From a virus (Duplodnaviria; Heunggongvirae; Uroviricota; Caudoviricetes), in IMG/VR virus record IMGVR_UViG_2571042390_000006, positions 1-29,803 of that record: a DNA stretch of 29,803 bases; one strand, written 5' to 3'. Below are positions 4,721-29,103 of the stretch, piece by piece. The notes below the pieces were generated by a model, which saw only the letters and a list, made by a program, of their open reading frames with translations, searched no databases and was not told where the DNA came from. The position numbers and the translations under genes are program-made. Within the stretch, counting starts at the first letter, position 1. Every line of letters starts with the position of its first letter.

Positions 4721-4983
4721 CCATTCTGGACTACATCGCTACTCATCCGGGGTGTAGCGGCGGAGAGATCGCCGCAGCACTGAATACCCCAACCACAGCC
4801 ATTAATGCTGAGTTACGCCGACTTTGGCGCGGCGGCTTAGTCATCAGAACAAACCGCAGCACAGGTGGTCGCGCTCGCAAAACAGGAGGCCAGGCTTCTT
4901 ACCACGTAAACCCGATGCTGTTCGGGTGTAGCAATCCACTTACTCACATGTTTAACCAGCTACTGAAGGAAGCCAGAGCATGA
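4717..4983 (+). CDS. Putative winged-helix DNA-binding protein
   Basis: 88-aa ORF. DYIATHPGCSGGEIAAALNTPTTAINAELRRLWRGGLV resembles wHTH regulators. Coupled to neighbours by ATGA overlaps. Confidence 0.45.
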   Translation: MTILDYIATHPGCSGGEIAAALNTPTTAINAELRRLWRGGLVIRTNRSTGGRARKTGGQASYHVNPMLFGCSNPLTHMFNQLLKEARA

Positions 4984-5279
4984 GCACCATCAACCACCAG
5001 AAGCTACGCGAACTGGCATTTGCCCTGCAACGAATGGCAACGCCTCAAAAATTACTGGCATTTCGCGCAATGCTCTCGCCGTCTGCTGTGCTGGCACTGC
5101 TGGATCAGCTGGAGCACGCCAGAACCACGGCTCCTGCCATTCGCCTCACGCTCCATCATGAAATCGCTGATTTCTGCGCAACGCTGGGGGCACCTGGCGA
5201 ACCGGAAACGCCGGAAGCAATGCAGCAAGAGCTGCTGCAACGCATCGATAACGTTTTTGATTTTTTTCTGAACCAGTAA
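4980..5279 (+). CDS. Hypothetical early protein
   Basis: 99-aa ORF, coupled start. Confidence 0.5.
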   Translation: MSTINHQKLRELAFALQRMATPQKLLAFRAMLSPSAVLALLDQLEHARTTAPAIRLTLHHEIADFCATLGAPGEPETPEAMQQELLQRIDNVFDFFLNQ

Positions 5280-5299
5280 GAAACCAGAACATGCACACA

Positions 5300-5562
5300 C
5301 AAAAAAACCGCTTGCCATGCCTCAATCGGTCAGGTTACATTTCCGCTGCAGCTCATAAAACGGGTGCCGGGATTCTCAACCCGATACAGAGCAAAGCGCA
5401 TAACCGCGCAAGCGGTTTTTTTGTGCGCACTGTATTGCCACGTCTTTTTCGCGTCAGAATTATGGCGGGGCGTACGGGGCCGACTTCGGTCGGGCCGGAT
5501 TCTTTGCTCTCCGGTGTTGAGAACCCTGTACGTCTCGCCACCCCGAGATTCTCAACTCTGGA
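5300..5562. other. Structured non-coding region (nested inverted repeats, three TTCTCAAC motifs, UUCG-loop hairpin)
   Basis: No convincing ORF. 9-bp inverted repeat at about 5307-5315 and 5408-5416; about 27-bp imperfect inverted repeat at 5368-5397 and 5497-5526; third direct TTCTCAAC copy near 5548; GGCCGAC-TTCG-GTCGG(G)CC hairpin near 5478-5496. Confidence 0.3.
5403..5422 (+). terminator. Candidate intrinsic terminator
   Basis: ACCGC-GCAA-GCGGT hairpin followed by a run of seven T, about 120 nt after the 4980..5279 stop. The stem is short. The right arm also pairs with AAAAAAACCGCTTGC at about 5301-5315. Confidence 0.4.
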
Positions 5563-5601
5563 TGGTGAGTTATTTCTATCACCGAGCAAAGAGGCCACAC
5601 C

Positions 5602-5832
5602 ATGGCAGACCGCAAACAGCACCGCACTATCGCGGAGCGTCGTCACATCCAGACTGAAATCAACCACAGACTTTCCCGCGCATCACGCGTCGCGCAAATC
5701 ATGCACATCAATATGCTGCATGAGCGCAGCCACGCACTATCAAACATTTATTCCGCCTCTGTTTTCAGCTATCTGGCGGATGATCTGCACGAGCTTCAAC
5801 AGCTCATCCAGCAGCAAAACAAACTCCATTAA
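5602..5832 (+). CDS. Hypothetical protein
   Basis: 76-aa ORF with an AGAGG RBS-like sequence; no motif recognised. Confidence 0.4.
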   Translation: MADRKQHRTIAERRHIQTEINHRLSRASRVAQIMHINMLHERSHALSNIYSASVFSYLADDLHELQQLIQQQNKLH

Positions 5833-5904
5833 TTCCTGTTCCGGGCCTTTCCTGCACCTTGCGGCGGGAGGCCTTCGCACATCTGTAACAAGAGGATTGC
5901 CGCA

Positions 5905-6270
5905 ATGATTCTCGCCAACGACTTTCTTGAATACCTGCTCAACACAGAACGAGATCTTGCCGCTCGCGTGCGTGATCGTTATGACATGTACCTGAAATCC
6001 CTGCCTGTACCGCAGCTCGCTGACGGAAAGATTGTTATTGATGGTCGCTACATGATTGACAGCCACGAGGGAAATTACAGGCTTTACCGCATTGAAGGTG
6101 GCACCCCGTCCGTTATTGGCATTTACCAGCGCCCATCCTCTGCAATCGTCGATGTGATTGCCGACAGCATCCGCATCACACATCGCCATGCCGACACAGA
6201 AGACACCGTGCTGGAAATTCAGCGGCTGGCTACAGTCTGCCGCGACACCCTGAATGGCATGACGAAGTAA
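5905..6270 (+). CDS. Hypothetical protein upstream of A
   Basis: 121-aa ORF ending 6 nt before the A start. Confidence 0.5.
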   Translation: MILANDFLEYLLNTERDLAARVRDRYDMYLKSLPVPQLADGKIVIDGRYMIDSHEGNYRLYRIEGGTPSVIGIYQRPSSAIVDVIADSIRITHRHADTEDTVLEIQRLATVCRDTLNGMTK

Positions 6271-6276
6271 ATCACT

Positions 6277-9099
6277 ATGACGGCAGAGTACATCAGGGAC
6301 TGGCAACAACCGCGCCACGCAGTGGGGCGTGAAGGAACGGGGATCCCCGCTCCTGAATCCGCGCTTTCCTCCTGGCTGGATGCCTACCGGGCAGAGAACG
6401 AGCGCCGCCAGGAAATGGCTGATGCGGCGTTCTCCGCCACGCCGCTGGGCAACCTGATTAATAAAAGCCTGGACGCACAGGAAAAACAGGACAAAACCAT
6501 CACACTGGCAGGAGACGCCAGAAAACAGGCACGTGGCGCGGTGGATGAAGCCATGGCCTCGCTGCGCCTGCTGCCGTCCTATCTGCGCGATCCGCTTATT
6601 CGCCACCTCTCCTTCCTGCGCAAAAAACAGGAAGCCGATCGCCGGAAAGGCAAAAAGAGCTGGCAGGCTGAACGCTACGCGTGCGGAACCCTGCGCAAAA
6701 TATTCGAACGTCTGGACCGCACCGACCACCGCTGGCTGACACCGGGTTATCGCTCCCTTGCCGGACGCGAACGCCTGGATGATTTGCTTTACCTGCCGCA
6801 GCTCAACAAACACCAGATACAGACGCTGGCCACCATGACGGCGGCGATGTTCAGCAGCACCTTCGAAAAACTCTGCGATGGCTTTGGCGCGACTGATGGC
6901 GAGCTGACCATGGATGTAACGCTGAAGGCTTATCAGATGCTGGCCCGCATGGCGTTACACCTGCACGCCATGCCTCCACATTATGACGCACTGACAACAG
7001 ACAAAGACCGGAGGAACGAACCGGACACGGAGCTGCTGCCGGGCGCAATCCTTCGCCTGACCTGTGCGGAATGGTGGAAACGCAAACTGTGGCTGTTACG
7101 TTGTGAGTGGCGGGAAGAACAACTCCGCGCCGCCTGTCTGGTTTCCAGAAAAACATCCCCCTATCTGAGCCAGGACGCGTTAAGCGAGTTTCGCGCACAG
7201 CGCGAGAAAACACGCGATTTCCTGAAAAGTTTCATGCTGGAAAATGAAGACGGGTTCACGATTGATCTCGAGACGGTGTATTACGCGGGAGTAAGTAACC
7301 CGGTTCACCGTAAGGCAGAAATGATGGCCACCATGAAGGGACTGGAACTTCTGGCCGAAGCCCGTGGCGACAGAGCGGTGTTTCTGACCGTCACCTGCCC
7401 GTCAAAATACCACGCAACAACGGAGAACGGTCATCCGAACCCCAAATGGAACGGGGCCACCATGCGCGACTCCAGCGATTACCTGGTTAACACGTTTTTT
7501 GCGGCGGTCCGCAAAAAACTGAACCGCGACGGCCTGCGCTGGTATGGCATCCGCACGGTGGAGCCTCACCATGACGGCACTGTGCACTGGCATATGATGG
7601 TCTTTGCACATCCGGACGAGATTGAAACCATCGTGTCCCACGTCTGCGATATTGCCATTCAGGAGGACCGCCACGAGCTGGGCGATGACATAACTCCGCG
7701 TTTTAAGGCGGAGTATGTCGACGGCTCAAAAGGCACACCAACCAGCTACATCGCCACCTACATCGGAAAGAACCTGGACAGCCGCGCCGTGGATGGCATC
7801 GACCCGAAAACGGGCAAGCCACGCGTTGACCACGAAACCGGAAAATCAATGGCCGAGAGCGTGGAGCGCGCCATCGGCTGGGCGCGCCTTCACCGGGTCC
7901 GTCAGTTCCAGTTCTTTGGCATCCCCTCCCGTCAGGTGTGGCGTGAACTGCGCCGCCTTGCCAGCCAGATGGCACGCAATCCGGAAGGCCCGCAACGGCT
8001 GAAAGATGATGCAATGGATGCGGTACTCGCTGCCGCCGATGCCGGGTGTTTTGCCACCTACATTGAAAAACAGGGTGGCGTGCTTGTTCCACGCAAGGAC
8101 TACCTGATTCGCACCGCCTACGACCTCGCAGATGAGCTGAACGATTACGGCGAACAGAGCGTACAGATTTACGGGATCTGGTCACCACTCATCGGGGAAT
8201 CCTCCCGTGTGTGCACGCATCCGGATAACTGGAAGCTGGTAAGACGTAAACCAGAACCGGAAGACAACGCCCACGAAAATGGTTTTGACCTTCAGGGCGG
8301 CCCTGCCGCCCCTTGGACTCGTGGCAATAACTGTCCCCGTGTACAGGAAACGGACAACAACGGGACAGAACAGCCGGAAGAACGGCCAGCACTGTGGCCG
8401 CAGCTTCCTGACGGCGTTGATGTGGATGACTGGATGCGCTCACTGAAACGGCACGAACGCCGGGCGCTGATGCGTTCGCTGCGTGACAAACAGGCAAAAA
8501 ACAGCAGTGATGAAATGCAGAGCTGGACACAGAGCCGCAAACAGCAGCGGCCTTTGCCTGATAACCACGAATTACTCGCTAAAGAATGGCGGGAATCTGC
8601 CGAATCTCTCGGCCTGCATATCGGTGAACAGCAGATGCAGCACCTGTTACGGGGCGGCAGCCTGTACGTTGACGGCAGCATCATTGCACCGCAGGGATTT
8701 GAAATTGTACGCAAACCGGATACCCGCCCGGACAGCCGAATCACGCAGCTCTGGCAGCGCCTGAGCCGTAATCACGGCGTAAGCAGCACGGAGATCCGCC
8801 ATAACCCGGTCGCCGGCTATCTGGAACAACTAAGGGCATCAGACCATGAAGCCGCCGCACGCCTGGCATCCACACTTCAGCAAGACCAGAACACCATGAA
8901 AACACCCGTTACCGTACTTTCTGACATGCTGCGCGCCATCCGCGACGCAGAGCACGCACAGAGAATCAGTGAAACAACTGAACGCGCCCACCGCAAAGCA
9001 GACCTGCTGCGGGGTGGCCTGACCAGTGGAAACAAAAAACAGACAGAAACGGGATTCACAAATCCCGTAAATGAGCAAAAAACGCGCCGCGATATATGA
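6277..9099 (+). CDS. A: Replication initiation endonuclease (P2 gpA family, rolling-circle HUH nickase)
   Basis: 940-aa ORF with VEPHHDGTVHWHMMVF (HUH metal-binding) and YIATYIGKN (active-site Tyr) as in P2 A. Longer than P2 A as I recall it, suggesting a C-terminal extension. Confidence 0.88.
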   Translation: MTAEYIRDWQQPRHAVGREGTGIPAPESALSSWLDAYRAENERRQEMADAAFSATPLGNLINKSLDAQEKQDKTITLAGDARKQARGAVDEAMASLRLLPSYLRDPLIRHLSFLRKKQEADRRKGKKSWQAERYACGTLRKIFERLDRTDHRWLTPGYRSLAGRERLDDLLYLPQLNKHQIQTLATMTAAMFSSTFEKLCDGFGATDGELTMDVTLKAYQMLARMALHLHAMPPHYDALTTDKDRRNEPDTELLPGAILRLTCAEWWKRKLWLLRCEWREEQLRAACLVSRKTSPYLSQDALSEFRAQREKTRDFLKSFMLENEDGFTIDLETVYYAGVSNPVHRKAEMMATMKGLELLAEARGDRAVFLTVTCPSKYHATTENGHPNPKWNGATMRDSSDYLVNTFFAAVRKKLNRDGLRWYGIRTVEPHHDGTVHWHMMVFAHPDEIETIVSHVCDIAIQEDRHELGDDITPRFKAEYVDGSKGTPTSYIATYIGKNLDSRAVDGIDPKTGKPRVDHETGKSMAESVERAIGWARLHRVRQFQFFGIPSRQVWRELRRLASQMARNPEGPQRLKDDAMDAVLAAADAGCFATYIEKQGGVLVPRKDYLIRTAYDLADELNDYGEQSVQIYGIWSPLIGESSRVCTHPDNWKLVRRKPEPEDNAHENGFDLQGGPAAPWTRGNNCPRVQETDNNGTEQPEERPALWPQLPDGVDVDDWMRSLKRHERRALMRSLRDKQAKNSSDEMQSWTQSRKQQRPLPDNHELLAKEWRESAESLGLHIGEQQMQHLLRGGSLYVDGSIIAPQGFEIVRKPDTRPDSRITQLWQRLSRNHGVSSTEIRHNPVAGYLEQLRASDHEAAARLASTLQQDQNTMKTPVTVLSDMLRAIRDAEHAQRISETTERAHRKADLLRGGLTSGNKKQTETGFTNPVNEQKTRRDI

Positions 9100-28800: not shown

Positions 28801-28887
28801 TGGTACCCGGAGCGGGACTTGAACCCGCACAGCGCGAACGCCGAGGGATTTTAAATCCCTTGTGTCTACCGATTCCACCATCCGGGC
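28801..28887 (-). tRNA. leuZ: tRNA-Leu (anticodon UAA)
   Basis: Reverse complement reads GCCCGGATGGTGGAATCGGTAGACACAAGGGATTTAAAATCCCTCGGCG...GGGTACCA: cloverleaf, long variable arm, anticodon loop UUUAAAA, 3' CCA. Confidence 0.95.
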
Positions 28888-28899
28888 TCGGGAAGAAAG

Positions 28900-28973
28900 T
28901 GGAGGCGCGTTCCGGAGTCGAACCGGACTAGACGGATTTGCAATCCGCTACATAACCGCTTTGTTAACGCGCC
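28900..28973 (-). tRNA. cysT: tRNA-Cys (anticodon GCA)
   Basis: Reverse complement reads GGCGCGTTAACAAAGCGGTTATGTAGCGGATTGCAAATCCGTCTAGTCCGGTTCGACTCCGGAACGCGCCTCCA. Confidence 0.95.
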
Positions 28974-29027
28974 AAATTCTTCAGGCCTTTCAGCCAGACA
29001 TCCGCTTGAGGCCGATGTCTTTTAAAC

Positions 29028-29103
<76 letters not shown>

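Follow-up and report, generated by a model that had tools for sequence, protein, structure and literature searches.

A structured, ORF-free region in the early operon of a P2-family prophage resembles the antisense RNA immunity switches of phages P4 and P1

What function might be served by a stretch of early-operon DNA that is dense in inverted repeats and carries no convincing ORF? We addressed this question for a region of a P2-family prophage, contained in a window of 29.8 kb (the term is used here for the whole stretch of DNA that was analysed). An earlier note on the same DNA had suggested a structured small RNA, an attenuator controlling read-through into the replication genes, or a protein-binding array. 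Judged from its sequence and from that of its relatives, the region reproduces a phage RNA switch that is already known, of the type found in satellite phage P4 and phage P1. The view that the module comprises two small RNAs and a target site, which together would gate two genes of the prophage, one antirepressor-like and the other the replication gene, is well supported by the comparisons described below (Table 1).

A repeat search of the sequence recovered, in place, all of the repeats that the earlier note had listed. The pairing of an A-run with a T-run corresponds to a perfect 18-nt inverted repeat (CACAAAAAAACCGCTTGC and GCAAGCGGTTTTTTTGTG), for which the chance expectation in 500 nt is roughly estimated at ∼2e-6; as had been noticed, its right arm also participates in a terminator-like hairpin, overlapping the paired segment at 5402–5417 that is followed by T7. 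The imperfect inverted repeat consists of two blocks, in which GGATTCTCAAC (5370–5380) faces GTTGAGAACCC (5516–5526) and AGAGCAAAG faces CTTTGCTCT (5502–5510). The third direct copy of TTCTCAAC and the UUCG-loop hairpin were likewise found. A stretch of 220 bp holds three of the four copies of TTCTCAAC and three of the four copies of GAGCAAAG present in the whole window, where about one of each would be expected. One element had escaped the earlier description: a third GAGCAAAG, at 5584–5591, lies on the Shine-Dalgarno sequence of the ATG at 5602.

Table 1. Positions of the predicted elements of the module and of the genes downstream of it (numbering of the window)
Feature	Position	Strand	Basis or remark
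Left arm of 18-nt inverted repeat, CACAAAAAAACCGCTTGC	5298-5315	+	Perfect repeat; invariant in all P88-type copies
Promoter-like site for IsrK-like RNA	5312-5341	+	-35 TTGCCA, 18-nt spacer, -10 TACATT; 9/12 matches
IsrK / P4-SeqA-like small RNA	5348-5422	+	Rfam RF01394, 59.5 bits (gathering score 50), E 1.5e-10
a1 target word, UUCUCAAC	5373-5380	+	Loop of IsrK hairpin 2; complementary to C4 a'
b1 target word, AGAGCAAAG	5388-5396	+	Single-stranded IsrK linker; complementary to C4 b' loop
Intrinsic terminator of IsrK (terminator-like sequence)	5402-5422	+	AACCGC-GCAA-GCGGTT, then T-run
Right arm of 18-nt inverted repeat, GCAAGCGGTTTTTTTGTG	5408-5425	+	Spans terminator loop, 3' half of stem, U-tract and GUG
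Second promoter-like site	5435-5463	+	TTGCCA, 17-nt spacer, AATTAT; just upstream of or overlapping C4 5' end
C4 / P4-CI-type antisense RNA	5458-5545	+	Rfam RF01695, 78.5 bits (gathering score 45), full length 1-87, E 5e-14
UUCG-tetraloop hairpin of C4	5480-5493	+	CCGAC-UUCG-GUCGG; Rfam model and MFE fold
b' recognition loop of C4, AUUCUUUGCUCU	5499-5510	+	Repeats, covariation, specificity types
a' recognition word of C4, GUUGAGAA	5516-5523	+	Single-stranded between hairpin 2 and closing stem
a2 downstream target word, UUCUCAAC	5549-5556	+	Direct repeat; 4/8 pairs changed on both sides
Spacer hairpin between a2 and b2	5564-5583	+	Equivalent hairpin of different sequence in other P88 types, Stx-phage copy and P4
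b2 downstream target word, GAGCAAAGAG	5584-5593	+	Overlaps Shine-Dalgarno AAGAGG (5589-5594) of ATG 5602
76-aa homologue of P4 epsilon (helper derepression protein)	5602-5832	+	Pfam PF25738, 34.2 bits (cut-off 27)
121-aa ORF (PHROG 3237)	5905-6270	+	Same position as P4 ORF151
Replication gene A, 940 aa	6277-9099	+	Pfam Phage_GPA, E 1.7e-129

The suggestion of a structured small RNA was borne out for two RNAs rather than one, an IsrK/SeqA-like RNA and a C4/CI-like RNA, both of which score above the gathering thresholds of their Rfam models. The IsrK-like RNA (75 nt) folds into two hairpins, a single-stranded linker and an intrinsic terminator; its predicted start lies at ∼5348, and the Rfam model also begins at 5348. 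The stem of the terminator is invariant in relatives, with variation confined to the loop. The homologous locus of an Stx phage has a stronger promoter (TTGACT-17-TATATT) in the same relative place as TTGCCA-18-TACATT in the window. A second Rfam model, c4-a1b1 (RF03163), on which P4-type copies score 44–51 bits, gave no match at E ≤ 1 within positions 5000–6000; the RNA is filed under RF01394 rather than under that family, and an a1/b1 function is nevertheless indicated by covariation.

The C4-like RNA is composed of a 17-bp closing stem, the UUCG hairpin, a second hairpin that presents b' in a 12-nt loop, and the single-stranded a' word. Its minimum free energy (MFE) fold (-47.6 kcal/mol, z -4.9) is identical to the structure of the covariance model. 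The stems are 100% paired in 40 sequences, with four pairs changed on both sides, and two pairs of the UUCG hairpin are altered on both sides in one group of relatives. An ACC(C) tail that follows the closing stem is invariant in all 43 aligned sequences, which is consistent with C4 being a substrate of RNase P; mature RNAs of this family are excised from a longer precursor by RNase P, with PNPase involved in P4. The significance of the second promoter-like site is uncertain, because its -35 element reads TCGCCA in many relatives.

Folding and covariation analysis across relatives had been proposed as a check on the region, and both structure and pairing proved to be strongly conserved. Among 40 distinct P88-like copies, a1:a' and b1:b' are 100% paired, with 4/7 and 6/9 pairs, respectively, changed on both sides. 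Pairing of the downstream words with C4 is 97.8% for b2:b' (5/10 pairs changed on both sides) and 89.9% for a2:a'; together, the a/b pairings include 19 pairs with changes on both sides. When the partners were slid by one to three columns as a control, pairing fell to ∼40–55%. The words a1, a' and a2 change in concert, as do b1, b' and b2. The hairpin that separates a2 from b2 is conserved in shape, with individual folds that are not significant (z -0.5 to -2.1), and the window, the Stx-phage copy and P4 all have b2 over a Shine-Dalgarno sequence.

The 40 copies fall into 11 (a',b') types. In calculated pairing energies, the most stable partner was the cognate target in 11 of 11 rows, for both targets, with cognate means of -24.4 and -21.9 kcal/mol and non-cognate means of -11.8 and -9.0 kcal/mol. 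These words very probably constitute a specificity code, like the one that distinguishes P1 from P7. The nested arrangement described in the earlier note accordingly divides in two: the inner repeats correspond to this apparent recognition code, and the outer 18-bp repeat lacks comparative support because its sequence never varies.

The gene that follows directly beneath the a2/b2 site encodes the 76-aa epsilon-like protein, which is 30% identical to P4 epsilon over 66 aa (BLASTP, E 2e-10); P4 epsilon itself scores 170 bits on PF25738. A genome-wide scan for distant epsilon homologues returned only six loci, and IsrK and C4 were present at all of those with enough upstream DNA. No similarity was detectable between the 121-aa ORF and P4 ORF151. 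Gene A, further downstream, is presumably the distal gene subject to polarity.

The P4 immunity region (seqA, cI/CI RNA with seqB, seqC, kil, epsilon, orf151, alpha) yields the same Rfam and Pfam matches in the same order, with seqA and cI matching the IsrK and C4 models at 60.8 and 74.9 bits. Both regions have a leader RNA, an antisense RNA and then a downstream target placed over an RBS, with a spacer hairpin separating a2 and b2, a homologous epsilon gene and a replication gene further down. They differ in that the element here is a full-size P2-family phage (of the helper type) rather than a satellite, that its replication gene is of the P2 A type rather than an alpha primase, and that the RBS covered by a2/b2 belongs to the epsilon homologue itself; the P4 site is placed before a small ORF that comes ahead of epsilon. 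In addition, the a words are of opposite polarity (UUCUCAA is in the leader here and in the CI RNA of P4), and the 18-bp long-range repeat is missing from P4.

Comparison with the immI region of P1/P7 (c4, icd, ant), by way of the Rfam model and the literature, places the antisense RNA in the same family, RF01695 having been built on c4. The logic of a1/b1, a'/b' and a2/b2, in which b2 covers the RBS of whichever gene comes first downstream, is also shared, as is a regulated output of the antirepressor kind, and a'/b' variants set heteroimmunity between P1 and P7, in parallel with the 11 types described above. The downstream genes are unrelated (icd and ant there; epsilon-like gene, 121-aa ORF and A here). 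Matching loci are also known from Gifsy-1 (isrK-orf45(STnc1160)-anrP), from Stx-converting and other lambdoid phages and from N15, IsrK being the seed of its Rfam family. The Stx-phage copy has IsrK, C4, a2, and b2 over a Shine-Dalgarno sequence, and shares 70% identity with the window across the RNAs. Loci of this group differ from the window in regulating a large antirepressor of the Ant/Rha type, in having a stronger consensus promoter and in lacking the long-range repeat. A processed RNA of ∼80 nt has been detected downstream of IsrK, and IsrK pairs with that region (PMC4825925).

Antisense immunity of the IsrK-C4 (seqA-CI) kind has been known for decades from P1, P7, P4, N15 and Gifsy-1. 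All three parts of the module are recognised by existing Rfam and Pfam models, and the module here is an already known kind of element, not a new one. IsrK and C4 have been equated with P4 seqA and CI RNA under the name ‘IsrK-C4 immunity system’ (PMC3632133). A literature search found no paper on this module in P88-type or P2-like phages.

On this evidence, positions 5298–5600 are probably an RNA-based immunity module belonging to a P88-type (Xuanwuvirus, P2-family) prophage and homologous to seqA-cI-seqC-epsilon of P4, immI (c4) of P1/P7 and isrK-STnc1160 of Gifsy-1. A weak sigma-70 promoter would drive synthesis of the 75-nt IsrK/SeqA-like RNA, which would display a1 in a loop and b1 in its linker and would end at the intrinsic terminator. 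The C4 RNA (∼5463–5543) would be carried both on transcripts that read through this terminator and on early-operon transcripts from upstream, and would expose a' as a single strand and b' in a loop; a2 and b2 follow, with b2 covering the RBS of the epsilon-like gene. On the precedent of the P1, P4 and Gifsy-1 literature, C4 would be cut out of its precursor (by RNase P at the 5' end) and would accumulate in the lysogen, where its pairing with a2/b2 on any entering transcript would block translation of the epsilon-like gene. The loss of translation would then cause premature Rho-dependent termination before gene A, keeping both the antirepressor-like protein and replication off, and C4 would also act in trans against superinfecting phages that share its a/b type. 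The a1/b1 words on IsrK and on the leader might either aid C4-dependent termination (as in P4 seqA) or titrate C4 and switch the operon on (as in Gifsy-1 IsrK). The promoter, terminator, processing and direction of regulation in this particular copy are all features that we infer.

Several observations count against this explanation. The promoter-like sites are weak (9/12 matches), and the c4-a1b1 model has no match to the window at E ≤ 1. The epsilon-like protein is ∼93% identical between this prophage, which has a 159-aa HTH repressor, and P88, which has a 93-aa C; it may therefore not match its own repressor. Finally, the measured effect of IsrK in Gifsy-1 is activation of the downstream antirepressor rather than repression (PMC4825925).

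The published Gifsy-1 model, in which IsrK activates through translation of orf45, suggests a positive switch that is possible, if doubtful, for the window: a1/b1 would pair with a'/b' mainly within the same molecule to form a translationally inactive leader, which a short IsrK from its own promoter would invade in trans to turn on the antirepressor-like gene, leaving free C4 repressor a secondary role. At the homologous isrK locus such a switch has experimental support, including compensatory mutations and anrP translation activated 140-fold (PMC4825925), and the window has the same complementarity of a1/b1 to a'/b', as well as an AUG (5462) at the position of the Gifsy-1 orf45 start. The frame from that AUG, however, runs on to 5908 without an orf45-like stop at the start of the next gene, and translational coupling of the orf45 type is therefore not reproduced. 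The a2 and b2 words also covary with C4 as tightly as a1 and b1 do, which would be needed only if C4 pairs with the downstream site and thus argues against a switch of this kind. P4 and P1 genetics, as represented in the literature that PMC3632133 and PMC4825925 cite, further identify the C4-type RNA as the immunity factor. The idea of a read-through attenuator ahead of the replication genes survives in spirit, given that the C4-type RNA of P4 causes premature termination before the replication gene; the control envisaged here would be exerted by antisense pairing in trans and in cis at a1/b1 and a2/b2 rather than by a simple leader attenuator, and the first gene controlled would be the epsilon-like derepression gene, with gene A lying further downstream. 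A purely cis-acting attenuator, the reading closest to the earlier note, would use the 18-bp helix as an antiterminator, such that early-operon transcripts (with the left arm) read through and internal-promoter transcripts (without it) stop at 5422. We consider this unlikely. It gains from the perfection of the repeat in the window, from the 17 of 18 pairs that hold in all P88-type copies, from the MFE structure of 5290–5430 (-51.7 kcal/mol, z -5.3), in which the long helix forms and the terminator hairpin is lost, from the retention of the terminator when IsrK is folded alone, and from the position of the predicted IsrK start between the two arms. Yet the invariance of both arms provides no covariation, 35 of 40 sequences lack a compensating change for the sole variable position (5410, in the loop of the terminator), and neither the P4 nor the Stx-phage form of the module has the arm. 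The terminator hairpin, being local, should also win kinetically, because the left arm competes for its 3' half instead of sequestering its 5' half, and a UP element and a -35 element can account for the A-tract and TTGC.

That the region might instead encode a protein, from a 205-aa ORF (5291–5908) or a shorter form of it that is labelled ‘Ash family protein’ or ‘transcriptional regulator’ in related phage records, appears very unlikely. The frame is open in 39 of 43 aligned relatives (and broken in the other four), and gives weak matches to Pfam Phage_ASH (19.2 bits, E 1.7e-3) and to PHROG 995, 821 and 6928 (E down to 1.5e-14). The Phage_ASH (PF10554) score is nevertheless under the 26-bit cut-off, and the PHROG matches are limited to profile positions 13–100, the part that corresponds to the RNA, while an Ant/Rha-like protein of an Stx phage matches positions 101–307 of the same profile. 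Variable sites number 34, 42 and 37 at codon positions 1, 2 and 3 in 40 relatives, with no third-position excess, in agreement with the absence of convincing coding capacity originally reported; variation clusters in the a/b words, where the changes compensate one another as RNA, and the ORF and the conserved 76-aa gene overlap in different frames. The historic ‘cI ORF’ of P4 is itself a Phage_ASH match, laid over the cI RNA gene, and P4 immunity is an RNA. We rejected the 205-aa ORF as a protein for its lack of codon bias, its sub-threshold Pfam score and its confined PHROG matches. The proposed protein-binding array (for a repressor, Cox or wHTH protein) would explain why two short words recur within 220 bp in both direct and inverted orientation, and is nonetheless most improbable: the repeats covary as complementary RNA partners, with G-U wobbles tolerated only in the RNA sense; they lie in the loops and single strands of a fold that covariance models recognise; the neighbouring proteins hardly change across eleven combinations of the words; and in homologous systems the interaction is experimentally RNA-RNA.

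The long-range repeat itself is real, invariant, specific to the P88 lineage and unexplained. Both arms are invariant in the 40 distinct viral copies and in copies from Citrobacter, E. albertii and Salmonella, and five different upstream gene contexts converge at the left arm. The A7 tract of that arm is placed as a proximal UP element would be, 41–47 nt before the predicted start of IsrK, and the 3' end of the arm overlaps the -35 hexamer of the IsrK promoter-like site. In one relative the A-run and the T-run are each one nucleotide shorter; we gave this no weight because two others carry an uncompensated change in the T-run.

The order IsrK, C4, epsilon is maintained in P4-like, P88-like, Citrobacter, Salmonella and E. 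albertii copies, and the module is present in 1102 of 5426 complete E. coli genomes. RefSeq annotation is blank at the module, phage records give the protein labels mentioned above, and translated RNA genes appear to make up Pfam Phage_ASH and part of PHROG 995. As a kind of element the module changes nothing, and its practical value lies in annotation.

P88-type phages of the P2 family belong to the helper type that is parasitised by P4, and about one fifth of complete E. coli genomes contain them. A tentative joint reading, which we offer as speculative, is that they carry the satellite's immunity-and-derepression cassette (seqA-cI-seqC-epsilon) in their early operon as a second, RNA-coded layer of immunity that would gate an epsilon-type antirepressor and gene A. 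A fast-diversifying and reassorting a/b code would set cross-talk or exclusion between co-resident P2-like prophages and P4-like satellites, and the 18-bp helix would either make the IsrK terminator promoter-selective or be an RNase III processing site. If so, the early and the internal promoter would give rise to transcripts that are handled differently. For those who study P2 and P4, the points of interest are a helper-type phage that appears to share the cI-epsilon cassette with its own satellite, and a three-way co-evolving a/b code that would provide a clean natural data set on RNA-RNA specificity; the still unexplained 18-bp long-range helix may interest them as well.

The gap between a 99-aa gene (4980–5279) and the next conserved gene, a 76-aa ORF with its ATG at 5602, had been described in an earlier note as a non-coding region of dense symmetry. 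The inverted repeats, the third direct copy, and the terminator-like and UUCG hairpins reported there are all present, together with a third copy of GAGCAAAG at positions 5584–5591 that had been overlooked. Each of the 8-mers TTCTCAAC and GAGCAAAG is expected approximately once per window, and three of the four window copies of each lie within the gap; the observation is confirmed, far beyond chance.

An Rfam scan of the window returned two matches exceeding curated thresholds, corresponding to isrK and C4 antisense RNA, and a second scan reproduced the result. Free-energy minimization gives C4 the same fold as the model (−47.6 kcal/mol, z −4.9). The repeated words fit the known anatomy of the C4/IsrK family: target words in IsrK (a1, b1), recognition words in C4 (a', b') and downstream target words (a2, b2), of which b2 overlaps the Shine-Dalgarno sequence AAGAGG (5589–5594) of the ATG at 5602. 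The earlier interpretation (a structured small RNA, an attenuator or a protein-binding array) was partly right: the element is a member of a known system of the IsrK-C4 type, and its novelty is low because that system is known. In the library searched we found no paper describing the module in P88-type phages, which is an annotation gap rather than a discovery.

Features of the gap, with positions along the window
Feature	Position	Details
isrK (RF01394)	5348–5422	Rfam 59.5 bits; gathering score 50
C4 antisense RNA (RF01695)	5458–5545	Rfam 78.5 bits; gathering score 45
a1, UUCUCAAC	5373–5380	loop of IsrK hairpin 2
b1, AGAGCAAAG	5388–5396	linker of IsrK
b'	5499–5510	loop of C4 hairpin 2
a', GUUGAGAA	5516–5523	single strand preceding C4 closing stem
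a2	5549–5556	downstream of C4
b2	5584–5593	downstream of C4; small hairpin between a2 and b2
Perfect 18-nt inverted repeat	5298–5315 / 5408–5425	
Shorter inverted block 1	5370–5380 / 5516–5526	
Shorter inverted block 2	5388–5396 / 5502–5510	
Third direct copy of TTCTCAAC	5549–5556	
Terminator-like hairpin and T-run	5402–5422	
UUCG hairpin	5480–5493	
Promoter-like site, TTGCCA-18-TACATT	5312–5341	predicted start near 5348

A search with the 76-aa protein yielded 80 viral loci, whose RNA regions fall into 40 different versions (81–100% identity), in which both RNA scaffolds are nearly invariant and variation falls almost entirely within the six a/b words. Pair counts on an alignment of this region from the viral relatives showed a three-way complementarity that co-evolves: a1:a' and b1:b' are paired in 100% of cells (with both-sides changes at 4 of 7 and 6 of 9 pairs, the latter with up to four pair types), b2:b' in 97.8% (5 of 10 pairs) and a2:a' in 89.9% (4 of 8 pairs), the last deficit being in part an alignment slip in two sequences. 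When partners were slid by 1–3 columns, pairing fell to ∼40–55% and covariation was lost; none of 500 shuffles reached the observed covariation score. The pairings include G-U partners, which are an RNA signature. The resulting recognition code, spanning the counterparts of 5373–5593, combines 5 a-types with 8 b-types in 11 different ways, and duplex energies rank the cognate partner highest in all 11 types at either target (means of −24.4 and −21.9 kcal/mol, versus −11.8 and −9.0 for non-cognate pairs). The a- and b-types reassort (for example in relative L082), and given the order a1-b1-b'-a'-a2-b2, each reassortment would take several (at least three) exchanges, or conversion. This pattern points to gene conversion, or to recombinants being under strong selection.

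The window, a provirus record in IMG/VR, is a P2-family prophage of E. coli of the P88 type (Xuanwuvirus). The 76-aa gene under a2 and b2 encodes a member of Pfam family PF25738, ‘Derepression protein’, scoring 34.2 bits against a cut-off of 27. Downstream of it come a 121-aa ORF, replication gene A (Phage_GPA, E 1.7e-129) and ParM. The 76-aa product is a homolog of the P4 epsilon ‘helper derepression protein’ (30% identity, E 2e-10), which scores 170 bits on PF25738. In satellite phage P4 the cI RNA matches C4 (74.9 bits) and the seqA region matches isrK (60.8 bits), and their order ahead of epsilon is that of the window. Because of this similarity and shared order the region is homologous to the P4 immunity region. 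IsrK and C4 have been equated with seqA and CI RNA of P4 (PMC3632133), as also in a study of Gifsy-1 (PMC4825925). IsrK and C4 also lie upstream of distant epsilon homologs (31–36% identity). An Stx-converting phage carries a copy at 70% identity that includes IsrK, C4, a2 and b2; its b2 sits on the Shine-Dalgarno sequence of an Ant/Rha-type antirepressor.

This prophage and P88 share an epsilon-like protein at ∼93% identity, whereas their immunity repressors differ (a 159-aa HTH protein at 2051–2530 (−) versus the 93-aa C protein at 1170–1451 (−) of P88), so that a match between the epsilon-like protein and its own repressor may be lacking. A cluster of tRNA-Leu(taa), tRNA-Cys(gca) and tRNA-Gly(gcc) at the window's far end (28801–29103 (−)) presumably belongs to host DNA next to the prophage.

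Of 5426 complete E. coli genomes, 1102 carry the module, in up to four copies each. RefSeq names the 76-aa gene ‘derepression protein’ or hypothetical and leaves the two RNA genes without any feature (5295–5605 in the window; compared sequences L086 and L087), while phage records place spurious CDSs on the RNA region. An ORF at 5291–5908 (205 aa), open in most relatives, was rejected as coding: it lacks codon-position bias, overlaps the real 76-aa gene out of frame and has only sub-threshold Pfam support. Translations of the IsrK-C4 region (5291–5908 (+)) match PF10554 (Phage_ASH) and, over roughly their first 100 positions, the profiles of PHROG 995, 821 and 6928. Since these PHROG matches are partial (positions 13–100, whereas 101–307 are matched by the Stx phage's true antirepressor) and the Phage_ASH match in P4 is the old ‘cI ORF’ or ‘cI gene product’ (8168–8584 (−)), these families seem to contain translated RNA genes. 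Mis-annotations from them were found in related phage records. A record titled Vagococcus sp. (NZ_JBQPOM010000071.1) carries an enterobacterial P88-type IsrK-C4-epsilon module (86% protein identity), probably through assembly contamination or mislabelling.

The outer 18-bp repeat, perfect in the window, recurs without change in copies from Citrobacter, E. albertii and Salmonella and is absent from the P4-type and Stx-phage copies compared. At 5313:5410, which falls in the terminator loop, 35 of 40 relatives lack the pair and show no compensation; the other 17 pairs form in every copy. Five unlike upstream gene contexts meet exactly at its left edge, and the repeat therefore belongs to the module. 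In folding predictions the long helix displaces the terminator hairpin whenever a transcript includes the left arm, which suggests a terminator that would be promoter-selective. We consider an antiterminator role improbable: in competing for the terminator's 3' half the left arm is at a kinetic disadvantage, and an UP element and −35 element would account for its A-tract and TTGC. Alternatively, the repeat could be an RNase III site, or a promoter element combined with a historical duplication.

A second promoter-like site (5435–5463 (+); TTGCCA, 17-nt spacer, AATTAT) has a −35 region that repeats the first's (direct repeat TTGCCATGCCT / TTGCCACGTCT) and is degraded to TCGCCA in many relatives; its predicted start lies inside the C4 closing stem. 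At the C4 5' end, an AUG (5462–5464, in a conserved AUUAUGG) lies at the place where orf45 starts in Gifsy-1, but in the window that frame continues to 5908 with no stop at the start of the next gene.

By analogy with P1, P4 and Gifsy-1, IsrK would be transcribed from its own promoter and end at the terminator, and C4 would be cut from read-through or early-operon transcripts. The ACC(C) following the C4 closing stem is invariant and fits an RNase P substrate; in Gifsy-1 a processed RNA of ∼80 nt (STnc1160) has been detected downstream of IsrK (PMC4825925). Activation through IsrK, which we regard as less likely, is compatible with C4 acting as a repressor RNA, the two not being mutually exclusive. 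The repressor-RNA model is, in its overall identity and logic, probably correct: C4 would pair with a2 and b2 and block translation of the epsilon-like gene, with polarity on gene A, and a1/b1 would either help C4 action, as in P4, or titrate C4, as in Gifsy-1.
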